64,000 nt of DNA from a candidate division WOR-3 bacterium (lineage in GTDB: Bacteria > Hydrothermota > 32-111): contig JBDRZU010000001.1 in NCBI GenBank assembly GCA_039804105.1, forward strand, positions 677,101 to 741,100. The letters run 5' to 3'. Position 1 is the first letter of the stretch. Each line of letters begins with the position of its first letter. The notes under the pieces were generated by a model. The model was not told the origin of the DNA. It did not search any database and was given only the letters and a program-made list of their open reading frames with translations. The position numbers were made by a program, and so were the translations under genes. Shown here one piece after another: positions 32,685 through 51,754 of this stretch.

Positions 32685-33224
32685 TTGGTACTCTTGGTTA
32701 ATATTATTTTTAAACTAAAAACGGAAAAAAATAATATTTTTAACTTTTCCTTAAAAAGTAAAGATGGTATTTATTCATTTATAATCTTTTCATTCACAAA
32801 CATCTGGATTTTTGAAATTTTCAGGAATTCATTTTTTCCTTTTGATAATATTTTGTTTAAAAATTTTTTAACTTACTCAGTTTTTAAAATTTTTTCTGCA
32901 ATCCTTTTTTTGTTTGGAATAATATTTTATATAAGATCTTTGGTCGATTTAAACAGTGAATGGGTAGTTGGAACAGATCCGAAAAAAGTAAAACAACTTG
33001 TAACAACAGGTATCTATTCTTATACAAGAAATCCAATCTATATATTTTTCATAATATTTTATTTTTCCATCTTTTTACTTTTTGGATCAATTGAAATGTT
33101 TTTATTTTTTATAGCTGCAACATTTATATTTTACAGAATCGTTTTAATCGAAGAAAAAGAACTTGAAAAAAGATTTAAGGGTAAATATATAGATTACAAG
33201 AAAAAGGTAAAAAGATTCATTTGA
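32685..33224 (+). CDS. isoprenylcysteine carboxyl / phospholipid methyltransferase family membrane protein
   Basis: Polytopic, with TTGIYSYTRNPIYIFF and EEKELEKRFKGKYIDYKKKV typical of the ICMT/PEMT family. The tracked start is TTG; see the finding on a possible ATG 32638 start across a T8 run. Confidence 0.7.
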   Translation: MVLLVNIIFKLKTEKNNIFNFSLKSKDGIYSFIIFSFTNIWIFEIFRNSFFPFDNILFKNFLTYSVFKIFSAILFLFGIIFYIRSLVDLNSEWVVGTDPKKVKQLVTTGIYSYTRNPIYIFFIIFYFSIFLLFGSIEMFLFFIAATFIFYRIVLIEEKELEKRFKGKYIDYKKKVKRFI

Positions 33225-40543: not shown

Positions 40544-41353
40544 TCAATGTCTTTTTTCAAATAAAATGATTGTATAATCAATTATGAAATTTAAAAGTTT
40601 GAAGATAAGATAAAAAGAAAATGAAAATGTAAAAATTTCAAAAAAAGAGAAGGGATACAAAAGCGTCACTTTCCTTAAAAATATACCAGAGAATGAACAA
40701 ACAAGAAAAGATATTAAAATATCATAATAAAGATATTCAGCACCTTTTTTTATAGAATAGATTATCCTTGGTATTACCATAAAGGGTAAACATAGAAAAA
40801 AATATCCATGCATATATGAGAATATGAAAAGGAAAATTTTTTCAATCTCCTCAATATAGTAATAATATTTGTCTTTTACAACTTTAATCCTCAAAATACC
40901 ATACAAACTTCTGATAAGATATTTTAAAAAATAAAGAATGAAAATAAGACCTATCATAAGATAGATCATTTTAAAAACAAAACCATTTTTATACTTTTGG
41001 AGAATAAAAAAATTTGATAGAGCAGAAAGAAACAAAATAACAAAAAAATGGAACAACTGATCAAGTATAAAATTTATTCCATTATCAAGATTATTTTTAC
41101 TTTTCAAAAGATCAATAAAGTAATGGGAAAAAAATGTAAAAAGAGAAAATAGTGTTGAGAAAAAAAAATTTTTTGAAAACAAGAAAAGTGAAACAAAAGT
41201 TGGTAAAAGAATAAAAAAAGAATGTAGAAATAAACCAATCTTACTCTTTATTTTGAGACGAAATATTTGATCAGTTTGAAAAATAAAGTCACCCAAAAGG
41301 TGACCCAACAAAAGAATTGTAATTATATCAACATCAGGAATAAAACTATTCAT
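40544..41353 (-). CDS. DUF3307-like polytopic membrane protein
   Basis: N-terminal LLGHLLGDFIFQTD motif; about 8 hydrophobic helices. Confidence 0.45.
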   Translation of the reverse strand: MNSFIPDVDIITILLLGHLLGDFIFQTDQIFRLKIKSKIGLFLHSFFILLPTFVSLFLFSKNFFFSTLFSLFTFFSHYFIDLLKSKNNLDNGINFILDQLFHFFVILFLSALSNFFILQKYKNGFVFKMIYLMIGLIFILYFLKYLIRSLYGILRIKVVKDKYYYYIEEIEKIFLFIFSYMHGYFFLCLPFMVIPRIIYSIKKGAEYLYYDILISFLVCSFSGIFLRKVTLLYPFSFFEIFTFSFSFYLIFKLLNFIIDYTIILFEKRH

Positions 41354-42837: not shown

Positions 42838-43394
42838 TTATTTTTCTTCTTTTTTATTAATTATACTCATAGATTTTTCAAATCCATTTTCAACTATTGT
42901 GTAAATATGTTCTATTCCTTTTTCTAGAACTTTATTGTAATCATCTTCTTTCATTTTTCCTAAAACAAAATCTTTATCCTTCTTTTCTTCAAACTCTCCG
43001 ATGCCAACTCTTAACCTCGCAAAATTTTCAGTTCCAAGATGGTATATTATTGACTTTAATCCATTGTGACCACCATCTGAACCTGATAATCTTAACCTAA
43101 AAGTGAAGAGTGATATATTAAAATCATCAACAATTATAAGAAGATTTTTTAAATCGATCTTATAATAGTTTAAAAACTCTACAACAGCGATTCCACTCTC
43201 ATTCATATAAGTTGTTGGAACGACTAAAAATAACCCATCTTTCAAAGAACATTCAGAAAAAAAAAGTGCCCTTTACCTGTTTTAAATTTCAACTGCTCTT
43301 TTTTAGCAAAACCAATAATGATTTCTTTTCCTATATTGTGCCTTGTCTTTTCATAAATTTTATCAGGATTTCCGAGACCAACAAGAGCAAACAT
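42838..43394 (-). pseudogene. pth: peptidyl-tRNA hydrolase, reading frame interrupted in a T9 (plus-strand A9, 43257..43265) homopolymer
   Basis: The upstream frame from ATG 43394 reads MFALVGLGNPDKIYEKTRHNIGKEIIIGFAKKEQLKFKTGKGHFFF, then stops at 43242. The tracked ORF 42838..43245 continues with LKDGLFLVVPTTYMNESG...GGHNGLKSI...RLRVGIG in the -1 frame. One extra T would fuse them into a Pth of about 185 aa. Confidence 0.8.
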
Positions 43395-45031: not shown

Positions 45032-45050
45032 ATAAAACTCACATTTTTCT

Positions 45051-45123
45051 CTGGGGCGGTAGGATTCGAACCTACGAATGCGGGAACCAAAATCCCGTGG
45101 CTTGCCAGCTTGCCGACACCCCA
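45051..45123 (-). tRNA. tRNA-Gln (anticodon UUG), no encoded CCA
   Basis: Hand-folded: acceptor UGGGGUG/CGCCCCA (U1-A72, G73), anticodon stem CGGGA/UCCCG with loop UUUUGGU, and T-arm GUAGG-UUCGAAU-CCUAC. Confidence 0.85.
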
Positions 45124-45157
45124 ATAAGTGTTAGTTAAATTTTACTTCCTAAAAGTT

Positions 45158-45418
45158 TTACTTCTTACTCACTTCCTGCTGATATTTTTCAAGAACGACT
45201 TTTTCAATCTTCTGTCTCATCTCATTGTTGATAGGATGGGCAATGTCTCTATATGTCCCATCTTTAGCCCTTCTTGAAGGCATGGAAATGAAAAGACCTT
45301 TTTTTCCGTCGATAATCTTTAAACCCCTGATAACAAATGCGTTGTCAAAAGTTACATTAGCAAATGCTTTCAACTTGGGTTCATCTCTTAATGTGATTCT
45401 TACTTCGGTAATTTCCAT
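45158..45418 (-). CDS. spoVG: septation/regulatory protein SpoVG
   Basis: MEITEVRITLRDEPKLKAFANVTFDNAFVIRGLKIIDGKKGLFISMPSRR. Confidence 0.95.
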   Translation of the reverse strand: MEITEVRITLRDEPKLKAFANVTFDNAFVIRGLKIIDGKKGLFISMPSRRAKDGTYRDIAHPINNEMRQKIEKVVLEKYQQEVSKK

Positions 45419-46329
45419 TCTTCCTCCTGAATTTTTGTTAGTAGTTCTTTTTTTATCCTATTTCGAGTTATCGGGGTGGTAAAAAAAATCCTGTTCCCAC
45501 CGAACTCTTTTCTTAGCGAATCAAAATGTTTTTCATTTTCAAAGATCGCAAAAATTGAAGATCCACTTCCACTCATAAGTGAAAGTAAAGGTTCATACTT
45601 TGTTATCCTATTTTTTATATCCTTCAATAAAGGATACCTTTCAAAAACAACCGTTTCAAAAATGTTATAAAAATTTTTGAAAGAACTTTTCAAATTTTTA
45701 TAATCAATTTTTGAATTTATAATATTATAAGATTTTCTATCATTTGTCAAGTGTTTAGATAGAAGGTTATATGCCTCTTTCGTTGAAACCTGAATATCTG
45801 GAGATATGATAAAAATTTTAAGATTTTCAATCTCAGGTATATCTAAAAATTCAAGTTCCTCACCTATACCAGTTCCTATTGCACTCCCACCTTCAACAAG
45901 AAATGGACAATCAGCACCGACCTTCAAAGAAAGTTGCCTAAGTTCTTCTTTTTCAAAGGGATAATCATAATAAAAATTTAAAAAATTGAGTATCGAAGAA
46001 CCATCAGCACTTCCACCACCAAGACCAGCACCTGATGGAATCTTTTTGTTGACTTTAAAATGGAAATCAACCCATTCACTTTCAGATTTGTTTAAAAAGG
46101 ATTCTTTAAAAATATGATACGATTTGTAAATAGTGTTGTTTTTCGGATCTATCATGCAATCACTGTTAAAAAATTCTATGTTTAAATCTTTACTTTCATA
46201 AACCTCGATATTATCAAAAAGATCTATCGATTGAAAAAAGGTGAGAATCTCATGAAAACCATCATCACGCCTGTTCAACACATCAAGAAAAAGATTTATT
46301 TTACAGAAAGATTTTACAAGATATCTCAT
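45400..46329 (-). CDS. ispE: 4-diphosphocytidyl-2-C-methyl-D-erythritol kinase (MEP pathway)
   Basis: KINLFLDVLNRRDDGFHE and KKIPSGAGLGGGSADGS, the GHMP kinase motif. Confidence 0.9.
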   Translation of the reverse strand: MRYLVKSFCKINLFLDVLNRRDDGFHEILTFFQSIDLFDNIEVYESKDLNIEFFNSDCMIDPKNNTIYKSYHIFKESFLNKSESEWVDFHFKVNKKIPSGAGLGGGSADGSSILNFLNFYYDYPFEKEELRQLSLKVGADCPFLVEGGSAIGTGIGEELEFLDIPEIENLKIFIISPDIQVSTKEAYNLLSKHLTNDRKSYNIINSKIDYKNLKSSFKNFYNIFETVVFERYPLLKDIKNRITKYEPLLSLMSGSGSSIFAIFENEKHFDSLRKEFGGNRIFFTTPITRNRIKKELLTKIQEEEWKLPK

Positions 46330-47057
46330 TTTCTGAAAATGTTAACTACCTCAGAGAATTCAAAAATTTTATCAGGATCTTTTTCTATAGAATTCCCTGT
46401 TACGATAAAATCTGCTCCACTTTCAAGAATTTCAAGTGCTCTTTTTCGATCCTTTATACCTCCACCGACAATCAGTGGTTTTGATAAAATCTTTTTTGCA
46501 CTCTTAATAAAATTTAACGGAACAGTTTTTTCAGATCCACTCCCTGCCTCAAGGTAAACTATTTTGAAATTCGATATTTCTGAGAGATAGATATAGTTCA
46601 AAAAAGTTTTCATATCTTTTATAAAGTTTATAGGCACCCTTTTTGCAACACTCGTCTTTTTATCATCCATACAGAGTATATATGATGTTGGGATGATCTT
46701 TAATGATGATTTGTATAGATTTTCAGCACCGTTGATATGTTCTCCAATTATATAGTCAAGTTTTTTTGTATTCAAAAGAAAAAGCAATAAAAGAAAATCT
46801 GCATTTTTCGATATCTGATAGTGAGAACCAGGGAAAATAAAAGTTGGTTTTTTTGTTTTTTCTTTTATCGAAAGTATGAATCTATCAAAACCTTTAATCT
46901 TCTTATCACTTCCACCGATAAATATCCCATCAACTTTTGAACTATTTATATTTTTTATGATTCTTTCAAAATCTATTTTTTTTGCTGGATCAATTAAAAC
47001 AAAATATCCTTTTTTGTTTTCGTTGAAAATCTTTTCTATAGGGGAAATTACTTCCAC
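46326..47057 (-). CDS. geranylgeranylglyceryl/heptaprenylglyceryl phosphate synthase family protein (PcrB/GGGPS)
   Basis: 243 aa TIM-barrel pattern: FVLIDPAK...DGIFIGGS...VYLEAGSGSEKTVP...PLIVGGGIKD...GADFIVTGNSIEKDP. It has a 4-nt ATGA overlap with ispE. Confidence 0.75.
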   Translation of the reverse strand: MEVISPIEKIFNENKKGYFVLIDPAKKIDFERIIKNINSSKVDGIFIGGSDKKIKGFDRFILSIKEKTKKPTFIFPGSHYQISKNADFLLLLFLLNTKKLDYIIGEHINGAENLYKSSLKIIPTSYILCMDDKKTSVAKRVPINFIKDMKTFLNYIYLSEISNFKIVYLEAGSGSEKTVPLNFIKSAKKILSKPLIVGGGIKDRKRALEILESGADFIVTGNSIEKDPDKIFEFSEVVNIFRK

Positions 47058-48262
47058 AGCAACCTCATAATTATTTTCAAGATATATTTGTCCTTCATCA
47101 AACTACCCATAAAGTTTATAACCATACCTATCGCTTTAACTGAAGATTTAAAAGAATAAATCGTATAATAAAAATCTGATGAAAGTATTTTCTTACCATT
47201 GAAAAGATTTATCGCTGATGTAAAGAATTTATCCCTCTCCTCATCGGTCATTTCAAGCAACATCTCTCTTAACTGGTTCTGTTTTTTAATAGAGTAACTG
47301 TTATCCTTTTCAACAAGTTCCTGATATTGGGACATCCGCTTTGCTGAAAAATCTTTTCCTTTTAAAACGGTGTTTGCAACTATCGCTGCAAAGTTCGCCG
47401 TTCTTAAAGCATTATCTATACCACCACCTGTTATCGGATCAGCAGCTCTTGCACTATCACCTATAACCATAACCCTTTCAGAATACATTTTCGAAAGTTG
47501 ATTAACACTCACACATCCGGGAAATTCTCTTAAAATTTTTGCATCAGGATAATATTTTTGCCTGTATTCATTCAAAAGTTTGTAAGGTTTATCACAATCT
47601 ATAGAAGAAGTTATTCCTACTCCAAAGTTCGCTTCATTTTTTCCTCGTGGGAAAACCCAAAGATAACCACCTGGAGCAACCGACGGTGTGAAATCGAATA
47701 TTATCTCTTCATCATTTATTTTTGGATCATATATTATCTGCTGATAGCATGAATACATATCGTTAAGATTACAAACCGAGTTAATTCCAACTTTATATGG
47801 CAGATATGATTCAACTCCATCAGCTATTATGAGAATTTTTGCAAAATATTCTTCTCCATTTTCGAGTATAACTTTAACATAATCTTTTTCTACCTTGGCA
47901 TCAACGACAAAACTATTTGTTTTTATTTCAAAATTGTTTTCCTCTGTAACTTTCTGTGCAATAAACTTTTCAAACTTTGATCTATCTATTATAAGTCCCA
48001 TATCAGGTATATCAACATTCGCTTCAAGTTCTTTATATTTCACTTTCAGTTTTGTAAACCTGTTTCTTATGAAAGGGAAATCTGTCTCTTTAAAAAAATG
48101 TTTTAATGTGTTGTTCGAAATCCCTTCAGCACAGATTATAGGTTCTCCTATAATATCATCCTTTTCAAACACTATAACTTTATAGTTTTTATCTATCTTA
48201 TAAGCAGCATAAAGACCCGCAGGTCCACCACCAACAATGATCACATCATAATTTTTATCCAT
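47048..48262 (-). CDS. geranylgeranyl reductase family FAD-dependent oxidoreductase
   Basis: YDVIIVGGGPAGLYAAY (FAD fold), the PIICAEGIS catalytic-Cys context, the GGYLWVFPRG motif, and VIGDSARAADPITGGGI. Confidence 0.8.
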   Translation of the reverse strand: MDKNYDVIIVGGGPAGLYAAYKIDKNYKVIVFEKDDIIGEPIICAEGISNNTLKHFFKETDFPFIRNRFTKLKVKYKELEANVDIPDMGLIIDRSKFEKFIAQKVTEENNFEIKTNSFVVDAKVEKDYVKVILENGEEYFAKILIIADGVESYLPYKVGINSVCNLNDMYSCYQQIIYDPKINDEEIIFDFTPSVAPGGYLWVFPRGKNEANFGVGITSSIDCDKPYKLLNEYRQKYYPDAKILREFPGCVSVNQLSKMYSERVMVIGDSARAADPITGGGIDNALRTANFAAIVANTVLKGKDFSAKRMSQYQELVEKDNSYSIKKQNQLREMLLEMTDEERDKFFTSAINLFNGKKILSSDFYYTIYSFKSSVKAIGMVINFMGSLMKDKYILKIIMRLLWK

Positions 48263-48431
48263 TTTTACTCAACGCTCCTACTGGACAAACTTTTATACAT
48301 TTATCACATTTAACACAACCTTCGTTTATCTGTAACCTATTCTTATACATCACGATAACCTTCACCGGACAGACAGCAACACAACCACCACAAAGTCCAC
48401 ATTTATCTTTTTCTACTTTTATATATTCCAT
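48255..48431 (-). CDS. 2x[4Fe-4S] ferredoxin (58 aa; below the ORF-track size cut-off)
   Basis: My translation is MEYIKVEKDKCGLCGGCVAVCPVKVIVMYKNRLQINEGCVKCDKCIKVCPVGALSKNG, with two CxxCxxCxxxCP motifs. GGAG lies 7-10 nt upstream. The stop overlaps the reductase start (ATGGATAA). Confidence 0.8.
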   Translation of the reverse strand: MEYIKVEKDKCGLCGGCVAVCPVKVIVMYKNRLQINEGCVKCDKCIKVCPVGALSKNG

Positions 48432-48433
48432 AC

Positions 48434-50992
48434 CTACTCCAAAATTATCTTTTTCAAATTTTCTAACATATTTTCATCAAACTCTTTAGAAACAGAACTA
48501 CCTGACGCAAGATCTTTTCTTCCACCACCTTTTCCCTTTAATATCTGGTTGATTTTTTCTATCACTTTCTTTGCATCCAGGTCAGTATTTGAACTGAAAA
48601 CTAAATAATTTATCTTATCTTCATCCTTACTCAAAAGTGTTCCACACACATGTTTCTCTTTACTTTTAATATTATCCATAATTTTCTTAAGGATGTCAAT
48701 AGTATAACCCTCGAAAAATCCAAAAACAGAAAGGTTACCATTCATTTTCTTCCCTTCGGATATCAATCGATCGGTTATAGAATTTATTTCATAAGTTAAA
48801 TATTTTTCGTTCTCTTTTTTCAACCTGTTATTTTCTTCAATTATTTTTTCAAATCTTTTTTCGAATTCATTAACATCTTTGATCTTATGTTTCAAAAACA
48901 ACATTTCTATTTTGTCGTTCAACTCTTGATAACTCTTTAAAGCGTATAAAGAAGTAAGAGCTTCTATCCTTCTGATACCTGTTGCTATTGATTCCTCTTT
49001 AACTATTCTAAAAAGTCCTATCTCTCCGGTTCTTTCTACATGTGTGCCACCGCACAATTCTTTCGAAACATTTTTTATGGAAACAACTCTAACTTCTCTG
49101 TCATATTTTTCGTTGAAAAAAGCCAGAGCACCTTCTTTTATCGCTTCTTCATATGGCATAATCCTCTTTTCAACTGGAATATTCTGGGATATTATCTCGT
49201 TGACACTATTTTCTATCAACTCTTTCTCCTCATCAGTCAACGGTTTAAAATGTAAAAAATCAAATCTGAATCTATCATAAGATACAAAAGAACCTTCCTG
49301 CCTTACATGTTCTCCAAGAACCTTTCTTAAAACTGAATGTAAAATGTGAGTCGCTGTATGGTTTCTCTGTATGAGATATCTTCTTTTAATATCAACATTT
49401 TGTTTATAGATTTTCCCTTTTTCAAATTCACCTAAAATCTTCTTTCCGATGAGCATATTTCCAAGTGGTGATTTGATGCAGTTTAGAACTTCAAACTCAA
49501 ATTGATCAGAAAAAACTGTTCCTGTATCTGCTATCTGTCCACCAGATTCAGCATAAAAAGGTGTTTCTTTCATCAAGAGTTCATACAAAGAATCTCCAAG
49601 ATCTCTATATCTTAAAATATATGATTCATTCTCAAGTGTCTCATACCCAACAAACTTTGAAACATCATCTTCGAACACAACAAAATCTTTTTTTTCAAAA
49701 TCTGTAAACACTTTATCCTTCCTGGATCTTTCTCTTGCTTCCTCAAGTAGTTGTTCAAATCCATTCTGATCGATTTCAAGGTTATCCTCTTCAGCCATCT
49801 GTTTTAGAAGATCGATAGGAAATCCAAATGTATCATAAAGTAAAAATAATGTTTTTCCATCAACAATATTCCCTTTCAGATTTTTCTTATAATCGTTGTA
49901 AAGTTGCATTCCTTGACCTATAGTTTTTAAAAATCTCTCCTCTTCTGATTTTATTATATTCTTCACTTTATCAACTGTATATAAAAGATATGGGTATTGA
50001 GTTTTCATTATTTTAACCACCTCAGATGTAAGATCATAAAGGAATGGTTTCTCTATCCCCATTTTAAATCCAAACCTAACCGCTCTTCTAAGAACTCTTC
50101 TAATAACATAACCTCGTCCCTCATTTTCAGGTATCACACCATCTGAGATTGAAAATGTAAGGGCTCTTATGTGGTCAGCTATAGAGTTTATCTCTTTTTT
50201 ATACTTTTCATAATCAAGATTGTATGTTTCAGAAAGTGTATTTATGATCGGCTTAAACAGATCAGTTTCGAAAATCGACTTTTTATTCTGCATGACAGTA
50301 GCAAGTCGTTCGAGTCCCATTCCAGTATCAACCCCTTTATTTTTAAGCAAAGTCCTATTTCCAGAACTATCCTGGTTGAACTGAGGGAAAACTATGTTCC
50401 ATATTTCAACATATCTTTTACAATCGTTTTCGATAGAACATGGTTTCTTATTTTCAAGTTCTTTCCCAAAATCATAAAATATTTCAGTTGAAGGCCCACA
50501 AGCACCTGTCCCTCCTGCTGGTCCCCAGAAATTCGTTCTGTCATCCATTTTGATTATTCTTTCAACTGGAATTTTTATAATATCCTTCCATATCCTGTAA
50601 GCTTCACTATCATCCTTATGAACAGTTACAAACAGTTTATCTTTATCTATCTTCAACTCATCAGTTAAAAACTCCCATCCCCATTTTATAGCTTCAAGTT
50701 GGAAGTAATCGTTGAAGGAAAAATTCCCAAGCATTTCAAAAAAAGTATCATGAAAAGGTGAAATCCCAACCTCTTCTAGATCAACCACCCTTAAACATTT
50801 TTGAATCGATGTGGCTCTTTTAAAATCAAAATCAACAAGACCTGCAAACATTGGCTTAAATTGAACCATTCCAGCAACAGTGAAAAGAAGTGTAGGGTCA
50901 TTTTCGGGTATTAAAGATGATGATTCAAAAACTCTATGCTCTCTATCCTTAAAAAATTTGATAAACTTTTCTCTTAAAATCTGACTTTCCAC
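48434..50992 (-). CDS. alaS: alanine--tRNA ligase
   Basis: 852 aa with FTVAGMVQFKP, the editing domain HTATHILH...CGGTHV, and a C-terminal DHHA1-like GGGRKDLASG. Confidence 0.95.
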   Translation of the reverse strand: MESQILREKFIKFFKDREHRVFESSSLIPENDPTLLFTVAGMVQFKPMFAGLVDFDFKRATSIQKCLRVVDLEEVGISPFHDTFFEMLGNFSFNDYFQLEAIKWGWEFLTDELKIDKDKLFVTVHKDDSEAYRIWKDIIKIPVERIIKMDDRTNFWGPAGGTGACGPSTEIFYDFGKELENKKPCSIENDCKRYVEIWNIVFPQFNQDSSGNRTLLKNKGVDTGMGLERLATVMQNKKSIFETDLFKPIINTLSETYNLDYEKYKKEINSIADHIRALTFSISDGVIPENEGRGYVIRRVLRRAVRFGFKMGIEKPFLYDLTSEVVKIMKTQYPYLLYTVDKVKNIIKSEEERFLKTIGQGMQLYNDYKKNLKGNIVDGKTLFLLYDTFGFPIDLLKQMAEEDNLEIDQNGFEQLLEEARERSRKDKVFTDFEKKDFVVFEDDVSKFVGYETLENESYILRYRDLGDSLYELLMKETPFYAESGGQIADTGTVFSDQFEFEVLNCIKSPLGNMLIGKKILGEFEKGKIYKQNVDIKRRYLIQRNHTATHILHSVLRKVLGEHVRQEGSFVSYDRFRFDFLHFKPLTDEEKELIENSVNEIISQNIPVEKRIMPYEEAIKEGALAFFNEKYDREVRVVSIKNVSKELCGGTHVERTGEIGLFRIVKEESIATGIRRIEALTSLYALKSYQELNDKIEMLFLKHKIKDVNEFEKRFEKIIEENNRLKKENEKYLTYEINSITDRLISEGKKMNGNLSVFGFFEGYTIDILKKIMDNIKSKEKHVCGTLLSKDEDKINYLVFSSNTDLDAKKVIEKINQILKGKGGGRKDLASGSSVSKEFDENMLENLKKIILE

Positions 50993-50995
50993 ATT

Positions 50996-51721
50996 TCACC
51001 TCTTTTTGATTAGATTTTTTAAAAGTATCCAATAGTATTGCAATTTTATATAAATATGCAAAACCATCAATAATATAAAAATAATCCCTGTAAAATTATG
51101 AAGATATACAAGTTTTGCAATATTTTTAAGATGAACCATTCCATACTCTCTTAATACAAGTAAAAGAGAGGTAAAGAGAACTGGAACAAAAATTATTATC
51201 AACAGAATGTTAACTATTCTGTTTATATCGCAAACATCAACGGGGATTTTTTTTCTTTTTGAAAAATAGATAAGCACCATCCCAAAAAGAAACAGAGGGA
51301 GAAGAACGAATATAAAATATTTATCACCCTCACTATAGGATTCATCCAAATTATCTTTTTTTTCATGTTCGTAAGCTGTTGGCAAATTTGTATCAGTTTT
51401 TTCAACTGGATTAAAATTTTTATATTCTGGCTGATTCTGTTCAGTTTCATGACCAGTCAAATTTTCCTGAACTTTTGCTTCATCCGTTTTTTCCTCTAAA
51501 ACCGTTTCACTTTTGTTATCAGTGCTAACATTCAAATTCGTATCCTGAACACTATCAGTAAGTTCCTGTGAAAGATCACATATAGAATCATTATTTTCAT
51601 CTGTATATCTACCACATCTTCCCGGATATGGATCATTTTTTTCATCAAATGGACAATATCTTTCAGCAAAGATGTGAACGATAACAAATATCATTAAAAA
51701 TGTTAGTACTATTTTTTTCAT
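50996..51721 (-). CDS. membrane protein with Cys-rich N-terminal motif (possibly DUF4405-like)
   Basis: Signal anchor, then YCPFDEKNDPYPGRCGRYTDENNDSICD, an acidic linker, and three or four TM helices with conserved-looking His residues. Confidence 0.35.
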   Translation of the reverse strand: MKKIVLTFLMIFVIVHIFAERYCPFDEKNDPYPGRCGRYTDENNDSICDLSQELTDSVQDTNLNVSTDNKSETVLEEKTDEAKVQENLTGHETEQNQPEYKNFNPVEKTDTNLPTAYEHEKKDNLDESYSEGDKYFIFVLLPLFLFGMVLIYFSKRKKIPVDVCDINRIVNILLIIIFVPVLFTSLLLVLREYGMVHLKNIAKLVYLHNFTGIIFILLMVLHIYIKLQYYWILLKNLIKKR

Positions 51722-51754
51722 AGGTTTATAAAATATCACAAGAAGGATAAATTG

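Follow-up and report, generated by a model that had tools for sequence, protein, structure and literature searches.

A packed array of overlapping genes

The genes described here lie in a 64-kb stretch of DNA (the window) from an uncultured WOR-3 bacterium (NCBI Caldifarciminota), whose source is hot-spring metagenomes; the sequencing runs found for it are of DNA only. Four overlapping minus-strand genes, which had been reported in an earlier note made from the DNA letters alone, proved to be real ORFs whose families were matched far above chance. They are predicted to encode a ferredoxin (fd), a geranylgeranyl reductase (GGR), a GGGPS, and IspE, and they are bounded by alaS and spoVG with intergenic DNA nearly absent. 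The features of the locus are as follows:

45050-45124: tRNA-Gln
45158..45418, minus strand: spoVG (PF04026, 1.5e-34; NF009749 above cutoff)
45400..46329, minus strand: ispE (CDP-ME kinase), 309 aa (TIGR00154)
46326..47057, minus strand: predicted group IIb GGGPS, 243 aa, GTG start (PF01884, TIGR01768)
47048..48262, minus strand: GGR, predicted FAD-dependent geranylgeranyl reductase, 404 aa (TIGR02032, PF22578)
48255..48431, minus strand: fd, 58-aa 2x[4Fe-4S] ferredoxin (Fer4 families)
48434..50992, minus strand: alaS (alanyl-tRNA synthetase), the ORF at the head of the packed array

The complete packed unit is thus alaS-fd-GGR-GGGPS-ispE-spoVG. The end of alaS, whose product matches the Pfam families tRNA-synt_2c, tRNA_SAD, and DHHA1 (identical protein in locus L001), is separated from fd by a 2-nt gap. 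The fd and GGR genes then overlap by 8 nt (ATGGATAA), GGR and GGGPS overlap by 10 nt (GTGGAAGTAA), and GGGPS and ispE share an ATGA overlap. These three junctions are as first described; the contacts with alaS and spoVG are additions to that description. The end of ispE is overlapped for 19 nt by spoVG, the last gene of the unit, which is followed by tRNA-Gln and prs. From ~3.8 to 64 kb, the window consists almost entirely of minus-strand, tightly packed, co-directional housekeeping genes, and since this whole region of ~60 kb runs in one direction, adjacency alone is weaker evidence here than it would be in a region of mixed orientation. The window also carries the diderm markers ExbB, ExbD, and TonB, and a close relative that is syntenic with the window (L003) encodes OmpA and Lnt domains in neighbouring genes.

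Family assignment of the four proteins

The ferredoxin matches Fer4 (1.2e-11) and carries the CxxCxxCxxxCP motif twice. Its eight Cys residues are kept in all relatives, as well as in a Calditrichaeota UbiA-Fd-GGR module and in a Latescibacteria protein in which the ferredoxin and GGR are fused. Wherever a WOR-3-lineage locus extends over the fd position, fd and GGR overlap by 8-14 nt, and in Calditrichaeota (L017) the Fd-GGR pair comes after an orphan UbiA. The Latescibacteria fusion supports a redox pairing of ferredoxin and reductase, and the GGR of M. acetivorans requires the ferredoxin from its own locus (PMC10821996). From these data, we infer that the ferredoxin is the electron donor of GGR; the suggestion that it is a dedicated partner is borne out by the kept Cys residues, the constant overlap, the fusion, and the Calditrichaeota pair.

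The reductase scored 175.2 bits against TIGR02032 (cutoff 158.8) and 63.7 bits against PF22578 GGR_cat (1.5e-17, cutoff 27). Among solved structures, the lipid reductase of T. acidophilum (3OZ2) is the closest, at 135 bits. In the alignment of the two, the catalytic Cys44 (within PIICAEG) stands opposite the Cys of the 3OZ2 motif PVRCGEG, and GGYLWVFP, which contains the YxWxFP substrate motif, stands opposite GYIWVFP. The earlier note had pointed to GGPAG, CAEG, and GYLWVFP, which are present as GGGPAG, IICAEG, and GGYLWVFP and, together with GDSARAADPITGGG, are kept among the relatives, the catalytic Cys and YxWxFP in all of them. In the tree, GGR groups with lipid reductases of FCB bacteria, Poseidoniia, Methanimicrococcus, and Archaeoglobus. 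It falls below the cutoffs of the NCBIfam archaeal lipid-reductase equivalogs, with 162 vs 780 bits for NF041160 (the Thermoplasmatales reductase), 126 vs 580 for NF041080, and 80 vs 700 for NF041385. A ChlP or MenJ type, which would have pointed to chlorophyll or menaquinone, was rejected on the basis of the tree and the scores (69 bits for ChlP, cutoff 343; 50 bits for MenJ, cutoff 700; in comparison to 162 for the lipid reductase). Judged by its sequence, the protein is a member of the lipid-reductase family (FCB/Euryarchaeota clade), of the archaeal/FCB digeranylgeranylglycerophospholipid-reductase type, and not an annotated equivalog. GGR-family enzymes are promiscuous, with paralogues acting on quinones and polyprenols (PMC10821996), so an ether-lipid substrate for this one is putative.

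The predicted GGGPS scored 123 bits against PF01884 PcrB (1.5e-35, cutoff 23.9) and 139.9 bits against TIGR01768 (cutoff 113.25), and fell just under the cutoff of the equivalog model TIGR01769 (148.8 vs 161.55 bits). Its best solved-structure match is FjGGGPS of F. johnsoniae (4JEJ, 120 bits), and Thermoplasma GGGPS scored 114-116 bits; in the PDB, group II enzymes gave 120, 116, 114, and 90 bits, HepGPS 49, and AfGGGPS 44. HepGPS models and structures together gave 49-52 bits, in contrast to 115-200 bits for the GGGPS ones, and a heptaprenyl PcrB/HepGPS identity was rejected (model 52 bits vs cutoff 260; 3VZX and 1VIZ 49 bits). In the tree, the WOR-3 GGGPS clade (support 100) is nested in a bacterial IIb clade (98) that includes Bacteroidota, Calditrichota, Poribacteria, and the biochemically proven FjGGGPS; it forms a long separate branch that is sister to the Bacteroidota/Calditrichota enzymes, and archaeal group IIa (98) is separate from the bacterial GGGPS clade. 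The tree was built from sequences outside group I, and the exclusion of group I rests on the scores.

The residues of the synthase, with the catalytic, G1P-binding, and limiter roles taken from PMC9385802, point the same way. Ile82 of the WOR-3 GGGPS aligns with the C20 limiter residues on helix alpha3' (I90 in Fj, V86 in Mt); Y126, Y168-L-E170, G172-S-G174, and G198-G-G200 are invariant across the WOR-3 GGGPS clade, and YLEAGSG (Y168-L-E170-AGSG) is kept. FjGGGPS, characterised by Peterhoff et al. 2014 as cited in PMC9385802, shares the bacterial clade, the limiter Ile, and the lack of an aromatic hexamerisation anchor with the WOR-3 enzyme, but the two are only ~35-40% identical. PcrB of B. 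subtilis (heptaprenylglyceryl phosphate synthase, group Ib) has PF01884 and the TIM-barrel fold class in common, but its limiter lies on another helix. The phylogeny and limiter residue, which the earlier note had proposed as checks, and the scores place the protein, as read from its sequence, in group II and not among the Bacillus-type heptaprenyl PcrB enzymes.

The ispE product contains GHMP kinase N and C domains and scored 196.8 bits against TIGR00154 (cutoff 138.7). Its gene precedes spoVG-prs-rplY-pth, and the order in E. coli is lolB-ispE-prs-dauA-ychH-pth. The ispE-prs-pth order is an old bacterial neighbourhood in which ispE keeps its ancestral position, so its presence is of little weight as an argument for a complete lipid branch. 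The earlier note had seen a ferredoxin-GGR-GGGPS unit "welded" to the MEP pathway; the unit is indeed conserved and translationally coupled, but the link to ispE was over-read and is best explained by inherited synteny.

Gene order in relatives and the remaining pathway genes

Ten distinct loci of the WOR-3 lineage lie on contigs that extend as far as alaS, and all 10 show the order alaS-fd-GGR-GGGPS-ispE, the genes either overlapping or standing no more than ~5 nt apart, even where GGGPS identity drops to 39-41%. An 11th locus of the lineage, cut inside GGR, retains GGR-GGGPS-ispE-spoVG. The GGR/GGGPS overlap of 4-10 nt is retained between lineages that are only ~40% identical. The sister MAG, TA06 bacterium 32_111 (L020), has the same cluster with a GGGPS that is 85% identical. 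In Bacteroidota, the GGGPS genes stand without Fd, GGR, or ispE neighbours. In Asgard archaea, a different (Sulfolobus-type) GGR lies directly upstream of GGGPS and DGGGPS; this cluster is independent, which indicates that the adjacency of a reductase to GGGPS arose at least twice and supports the GGR-GGGPS link.

We also looked for DGGGPS, G1PDH, CarS, and a polyprenyl (GGPP) synthase. The 64-kb window yielded none of them (Pfam scan of 30 further ORFs; screen of 64 ORFs for transmembrane segments and Asp motifs), nor did the surroundings of the cluster in the relatives out to 10 kb, and a profile search seeded with the Asgard DGGGPS matched Asgard proteins only. Homologues of G1PDH, GGGPS, and DGGGPS are all listed for TA06 bacterium 32_111 in Supplementary Table 5 of Coleman et al. 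2019 (PMC6431249), the DGGGPS homologue being KUK50849.1 and KUK50946.1 being given as a "putative G1P dehydrogenase"; the evidence for DGGGPS and G1PDH in the lineage is that table for the sister MAG alone. For other WOR-3 MAGs, the same table lists GGGPS and DGGGPS homologues (PMC6431249).

A putative archaeal-type ether-lipid module and its alternatives

With a probability of roughly 0.65, we propose that this operon of a thermophilic WOR-3 bacterium is constitutively co-expressed and provides the enzymes for two steps in the synthesis of an archaeal-type isoprenoid ether lipid. The group IIb GGGPS would join geranylgeranyl diphosphate to glycerol phosphate and thereby form the first ether bond; its backbone substrate is most likely sn-glycerol-1-phosphate, the one demonstrated for the enzymes of Flavobacterium and Cloacimonetes. 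The FAD reductase would convert geranylgeranyl to phytanyl chains by hydrogenating their C=C bonds, with electrons probably delivered by the small 2x[4Fe-4S] ferredoxin encoded just upstream. IspE, co-translated from its inherited place just downstream, would feed the MEP pathway and hence the supply of isoprenoid units. The other steps, namely GGPP synthase, a UbiA-type DGGGPS for the second ether bond, G1P supply, CDP activation, and head groups, would come from outside the window, and the end product would probably be a saturated archaeol-like diether phospholipid alongside ordinary acyl lipids. The gene identities, the subfamily placement, the intact catalytic residues, the conserved order and overlaps, and the ferredoxin-reductase link (fusion and recurrent pairing) were observed directly, and we infer the substrates, the stereochemistry, the order of reduction and etherification, and a second ether bond in this genome.

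Where the pathway ends is the point on which one alternative turns. The module may yield a mono-ether only (phytanyl- or geranylgeranyl-glycerol phosphate), which further modification would turn into a minor lipid or a membrane anchor, with a status like that of the Bacillus PcrB product, without a second ether bond or a bulk archaeal-type membrane lipid. The absence of a UbiA-type gene from the window and from the 10 kb around the cluster in WOR-3 relatives fits such an outcome, as do the direct coupling of the reductase to GGGPS rather than to DGGGPS and the group IIb GGGPS of Bacteroidota, which has no known membrane role (PMC7852524). We nevertheless regard it as unlikely: the sister MAG is listed with DGGGPS and G1PDH homologues, the GGGPS and DGGGPS of Cloacimonetes gave unsaturated archaeol-PG in E. 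coli (PMC7852524), and the WOR-3 enzyme falls outside the PcrB/HepGPS group.

The other two alternatives concern what the genes are for. It appears improbable that the Fd-reductase pair acts to saturate some other polyprenyl compound (such as the side chain of menaquinone, a polyprenol/dolichol-like carrier, or a precursor of carotenoids) and that the place of the pair beside GGGPS and ispE reflects housekeeping packing only. The promiscuity of the family (PMC10821996), the dense minus-strand packing from ~3.8 to 64 kb, and the fact that other FCB bacteria couple this Fd-GGR pair to an orphan UbiA and not to GGGPS speak for this possibility, but housekeeping packing sits poorly with a GGR/GGGPS overlap of 4-10 nt that is kept across lineages at ~40% identity and with the independent adjacency in Asgard archaea, where the GGR belongs to a different subfamily; the MenJ and ChlP scores given above likewise argue for a lipid reductase. 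Coleman et al. 2019 raised the possibility of salvage for FCB bacteria without G1PDH (PMC6431249), and a hot-spring host lives among abundant archaea, whose lipids the genes might serve to salvage or catabolise (by reverse prenyl transfer or by remodelling of scavenged lipids) instead of making them de novo. We consider this very improbable, given that the genes show vertical conservation and form part of an operon of core translation and nucleotide genes, as would suit a constitutive role in biosynthesis, that a G1PDH homologue is listed for the sister MAG, and that lipase, etherase, and transporter genes are absent beside the cluster.

The earlier note was right to remark that the idea is not new, as the trait was already published for related (FCB) bacteria. 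The Cloacimonetes set of GGGPS, DGGGPS, and GGR (Villanueva et al. 2021, PMC7852524; distribution in Coleman et al. 2019, PMC6431249) has in common with the WOR-3 genes a bacterial group II GGGPS, an archaeal/Euryarchaeota-like GGR, and supply by the MEP pathway; as in the FCB superphylum, the host is a diderm, and WOR-3 is related to the FCB group. However, GGGPS lies beside DGGGPS in Cloacimonetes, whereas the WOR-3 gene has Fd-GGR and ispE as its translationally coupled partners, with DGGGPS elsewhere; Cloacimonetes lack G1PDH, whereas a homologue is listed for the WOR-3 sister MAG; and the hot-spring WOR-3 lineage is not in Villanueva's list of phyla (PMC7852524). The GGRs of M. acetivorans (Isobe/Ogawa et al. 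2014, as described in PMC10821996) and T. acidophilum (3OZ2) share the GGR family and the catalytic motifs, and in M. acetivorans a small 4Fe-4S ferredoxin gene adjoins the reductase, according to the same source (PMC10821996). In contrast to the archaeal cases, the WOR-3 host is a bacterium, fd and the reductase gene overlap, and both are joined to the reading context of the GGGPS gene. The Calditrichaeota module (L017) shares the overlapping Fd-GGR pair and the GGR clade, but its prenyltransferase is an orphan membrane UbiA (best NCBIfam match 35 bits), whereas the WOR-3 partner is the soluble GGGPS. The WOR-3 operon is a well-supported further example of a published trait and not a new kind of system.

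Archaeal-type lipids made by bacteria in nature are relevant to the "lipid divide" and to the natural viability of mixed membranes; the evidence for such bacteria comes, to date, from genes of uncultured Cloacimonetes expressed in E. coli. Here, the predicted saturation machinery and first ether-bond enzyme form one conserved, coupled unit of a core housekeeping operon, which speaks for constitutive use and against a relic, and life in hot springs would benefit in an obvious way from saturated ether lipids. The sister MAG is among the few bacterial genomes listed with G1PDH, GGGPS, and DGGGPS homologues together, and the module provides a small cassette of three genes for examining ferredoxin-dependent saturation in engineered E. 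coli. A broader proposal, which we put forward tentatively and hold to be rather doubtful, is that an order- or class-level thermophilic WOR-3 clade constitutively makes fully saturated G1P-based archaeol-type diether phospholipids by means of the core-operon Fd-GGR-GGGPS and its own G1PDH and DGGGPS, as a substantial share of a mixed (heterochiral) membrane and an adaptation to heat. A WOR-3 isolate exists (PMC12285271), and such clade-wide saturated G1P diethers, if real, would imply an "archaeal" lipid toolkit more complete than any yet known from a bacterium. Taken as it stands, the operon leaves the present picture unchanged and extends it to another phylum and a new gene arrangement.

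Organization of the gene unit in the window and its relatives

All four of the minus-strand open reading frames proposed in the earlier note were present at 45400-48431, and profile searches, in which each protein scored well beyond chance, confirmed their families; the fd/GGR, GGR/GGGPS and GGGPS/ispE junctions were likewise as it described (ATGGATAA, a 10-nt overlap and ATGA, respectively). Two adjoining genes, alaS and spoVG, had been missed. Only 2 nt separate the end of alaS from fd, and spoVG shares 19 nt with the end of ispE, so that the packed unit runs alaS-fd-GGR-GGGPS-ispE-spoVG.

Genes of the packed unit and two nearby membrane proteins (window coordinates)
50996-51739, minus: Cys-rich membrane protein before alaS; multiple predicted transmembrane (TM) segments; weak DUF4405 match
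48434-50992: alaS
48255-48431, minus: fd, ferredoxin, 58 aa; Fer4 families; two CxxCxxCxxxCP motifs
47048-48262, minus: GGR, geranylgeranyl reductase, 404 aa; PF22578 GGR_cat; TIGR02032 175 bits (cutoff 158.8)
46326-47057, minus: GGGPS, PcrB-family synthase, 243 aa, GTG start; PF01884 PcrB 123 bits; TIGR01768 140 bits (cutoff 113)
45400-46329, minus: ispE, CDP-ME kinase, 309 aa; TIGR00154 197 bits (cutoff 139)
45158-45418: spoVG
40544-41353, minus: DUF3307 protein after rplI, 7-TM; motifs HLLGDFIFQTD and HYFID

Downstream of spoVG are tRNA-Gln, prs, rplY, pth, rpsF, ssb, rpsR, and rplI. A scan for promoters and terminators gave site numbers no higher than in shuffled controls. From 3800 to 64000 the genes are almost all minus-strand, with many 4-20-nt overlaps, and the GC skew is negative throughout. 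This region is one long packed co-directional block, so adjacency within it is weaker as functional evidence. Plus-strand genes are very rare in this ~60-kb minus-strand array; one of them (32685-33224) encodes a PEMT/ICMT-family membrane methyltransferase (phospholipid or isoprenylcysteine type) and adjoins two tRNA genes. Of the WOR-3-lineage loci that extend far enough, most have the two uncharacterised membrane proteins on either side of the conserved array; the counterparts of the 50996-51739 protein in relatives are annotated MJ0753_N, and the window copy matches DUF4405 weakly and nothing else.

An identical GGGPS is deposited from a 'candidate division WOR-3 bacterium' MAG (GCA_039804085.1). 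The species representatives sharing the cluster bear WOR-3 titles (NCBI phylum Caldifarciminota), except one that is named 'candidate division TA06 bacterium 32_111', and the public runs containing the locus, all of DNA, are almost all hot-spring metagenomes. The window has a GC content of ~30% and encodes ExbB/ExbD/TonB, which, together with the OmpA and Lnt domains encoded in neighbouring genes of L003 (a close relative syntenic with the window), fit a diderm cell having acylated lipoproteins.

The order alaS-fd-GGR-GGGPS-ispE-spoVG is kept in every distinct WOR-3-lineage locus whose contig reaches alaS (10/10), and an eleventh, L024, whose contig is cut inside GGR, keeps GGR-GGGPS-ispE-spoVG. 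In these loci, adjacent genes overlap by 4-20 nt or are separated by no more than about 5 nt. The lowest identities to the window are 39-41% (GGGPS) and 43% (GGR).

Subfamilies of the synthase and the reductase, and the role of the ferredoxin

Among solved structures, the GGGPS matched best that of Flavobacterium johnsoniae (4JEJ, 120 bits), followed by the Thermoplasma GGGPS structures (116 and 114 bits) and the M. thermautotrophicus GGGPS (90 bits), against 49 and 30 bits for the HepGPS structures of Bacillus and Staphylococcus and 44 bits for the group I GGGPS of A. fulgidus. On NCBIfam, the GGGPS/HepGPS subfamily model gave 201 bits, TIGR01769 149 bits, and the HepGPS equivalog 52 bits. 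In a maximum-likelihood tree (n=87; 80 species-representative loci, previously gathered loci, and three PDB sequences), the WOR-3 lineage formed a single clade (SH-aLRT 100), which was nested in a bacterial clade that also includes Bacteroidota, Calditrichota, Poribacteria and 4JEJ (support 98); opposite it, the archaeal sequences (Thermoplasma, Asgard, Poseidoniales and Thermoproteota) grouped as another clade (98). Ile82 aligned to the proposed C20 limiter (Fj I90, Mt V86), and Y126, Y168-L-E170, and the GSG and GGG phosphate loops were invariant across the WOR-3 clade; the roles of these residues are taken from PMC9385802. The aromatic hexamerisation anchor (Mt W141) is missing, as in dimeric bacterial enzymes. 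By the scores, the protein does not cluster with HepGP synthases, which the earlier note had named among the results that would tell against its reading. Based upon scores, tree placement and residues, the window protein is, by its sequence, a group IIb GGGPS.

Among solved structures, the GGR was closest to the digeranylgeranylglycerophospholipid reductase of T. acidophilum (3OZ2, 135 bits), with the Sulfolobus GGR next (76 bits). Its best equivalog-type matches on NCBIfam are archaeal lipid reductases (162, 126, and 80 bits), the ChlP/BchP and MenJ models giving 69 and 50 bits, and it falls below the cutoff of every one of these equivalogs. A homologue search returned a WOR-3-specific series with identities from 94% down to 41% and, at ~34%, proteins of Calditrichaeota, Marinimicrobia, Latescibacteria, KSB1, Poseidoniia, Methanimicrococcus and Archaeoglobus, many of which carry a lipid reductase annotation. 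In the GGR tree, the WOR-3 clade (support 100, long stem) was placed with FCB-type reductases, in agreement with the 'Euryarchaeota-like' GGRs of Cloacimonetes reported by Villanueva et al. (PMC7852524). The motifs pointed out previously are kept in all relatives (GGGPAG, Cys44 in PIICAEG, and GGYLWVFP), as is GDSARAADPITGGG.

The eight cysteines of the ferredoxin are conserved in relatives, and fd overlaps the GGR gene in every WOR-3-lineage locus that includes its position. Outside the lineage, a Calditrichaeota contig (L017 5463-9173) carries, in order, purF, UbiA (312 aa), a ferredoxin (57 aa) and GGR; its UbiA is an orphan with no good match to a curated prenyltransferase family (best NCBIfam 35 bits). 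A Latescibacteria MAG (L014 10001-11464) encodes a 487-aa protein with a 2x[4Fe-4S] ferredoxin domain N-terminal to GGR, and this predicted fusion is a Rosetta-stone link for the ferredoxin-reductase pair. The GGR of M. acetivorans is reported to require a ferredoxin from its own gene locus, and a 4Fe-4S protein to be encoded at the GGR locus of T. acidophilum (PMC10821996). Given the conserved overlap, the Calditrichaeota pairing, the Latescibacteria fusion and these precedents, the ferredoxin is very probably the electron donor of the GGR. Many Poseidoniales (MGII) genomes have a small ferredoxin-like ORF ~0.6 kb upstream of GGGPS (L079 9116-9319 and ~17 other loci).

The neighbours of Bacteroidota GGGPS genes are unrelated to the WOR-3 cluster. 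In Asgard archaea (Promethearchaeota, Thor-, Odin-, and Hodarchaeota MAGs), a GGR of ~460 aa sits directly upstream of GGGPS, and after GGGPS comes, in the same contiguous cluster, a 290-aa UbiA protein with NDxYDxEID, annotated DGGGPS and with DGGGPS as its best match; this cluster was found at L038 8532-11662 and in 16 other Asgard loci (among them L039, L046, L047, L051, L052, L055, L056, L061, L070-L074, L082, and L097). We rejected a recent block transfer from Asgard archaea, as the WOR-3 GGGPS belongs to the bacterial clade and the Asgard reductase falls in another, Sulfolobus-type branch of the GGR tree. Since the GGGPS trees separate Bacteria from Archaea and the reductases differ in type, the reductase-GGGPS adjacency originated separately in the two domains, which is good evidence for a functional link and itself counts against such a transfer.

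Position of ispE and the split pth gene

The junction with ispE had been taken in the earlier note as evidence of a complete, dedicated branch. Instead, ispE-prs-pth is an old bacterial neighbourhood: the gene order is lolB-ispE-prs-dauA-ychH-pth in E. coli K-12 and ispE-purR-yabJ-spoVG-glmU-prs-ctc-pth in B. subtilis. The simplest reading of the gene order is an insertion of fd-GGR-GGGPS downstream of alaS and ahead of an inherited ispE-spoVG-prs-rplY-pth array; co-translation of ispE through the ATGA overlap is real, yet has little bearing on pathway completeness. The earlier observation (four ORFs, junctions and families) thus stands, and its interpretation does so in part, the reading of the synthase as a GGGPS rather than a HepGP synthase being upheld and the argument from ispE carrying little weight.

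Within this array, pth (peptidyl-tRNA hydrolase; 42838-43394, minus) consists of two ORFs in different frames, split on the coding strand at a run of nine T: GGGCAC TTTTTTTTT CTGAATGTTCTTTGA. Either a -1 ribosomal shift or one extra U added by transcriptional slippage would restore full-length Pth (…GKGHFFF|SECSLKDGLFLVVPTTYMN…). The split recurs in ten related loci (L003, L008, L011, L013, L018-L021, L023, and L024), where the T9-T10 run and frame arrangement are kept despite greatly differing Pth sequences; this conservation suggests a recoding or slippage site rather than an assembly error. A literature search found no description of such a site in a split pth.

Remaining pathway steps and likely function

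Neither the window nor the 10 kb around the cluster in relatives yielded a gene for UbiA, a G1PDH-type enzyme (G1P dehydrogenase), CarS or a polyprenyl synthase; in the window, Pfam scans of 30 further ORFs and a UbiA-like screen (TM count plus Asp motif) turned up housekeeping genes only. A DGGGPS seed adjoining GGGPS or GGR was found in neither the Bacteroidota-like loci nor the Latescibacteria locus; the Calditrichaeota locus had the orphan UbiA only, and the Asgard loci a true DGGGPS. A homologue search with the Asgard DGGGPS profile returned 120 proteins, all Asgard, and no WOR-3 or TA06 protein. In Supplementary Table 5 of Coleman et al. 2019 (PMC6431249), however, GGGPS and DGGGPS homologues are listed for two WOR-3 MAGs; the entries for TA06 bacterium 32_111 are GGGPS KUK50718.1, the DGGGPS homologue KUK50849.1 and a putative G1P dehydrogenase, KUK50946.1. 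Locus L020, from this sister MAG, has the same cluster, with a GGGPS 85-86% identical to that of the window and within its six-member clade in the tree. The table may indirectly fill part of the gap on DGGGPS and G1PDH. We also considered the 7-TM DUF3307 protein or the MJ0753_N-like protein as a hidden second prenyltransferase, and dropped the idea because they are without UbiA similarity and the sister MAG already has a reported DGGGPS homologue.

In the more distant WOR-3 lineages (L011 2850-4539; L013 2724-4406), the co-directional array also includes genes for a CDP-alcohol phosphatidyltransferase and a myo-inositol-1-phosphate synthase, ~6 kb upstream of alaS. Neither gene occurs in the window; the two enzymes could provide an inositol-phosphate head group.

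Villanueva et al. (PMC7852524) reported GGRs accompanying the synthase genes, and described both synthase genes as widespread in FCB and related phyla and co-localised in Cloacimonetes only; WOR-3 is missing from their list of phyla. Given this study and that of Coleman et al., the kinds of genes and the idea are already published. A 2025 survey of 181 WOR-3 genomes makes no mention of isoprenoid or ether-lipid genes, and the main text of the first WOR-3 isolate paper (PMC12285271) holds no lipid data. The details that appear undescribed are the Fd-GGR-GGGPS operon, its conservation across the WOR-3 clade, and its hot-spring setting. [quoted passage not shown] A full diether branch in these bacteria is plausible.
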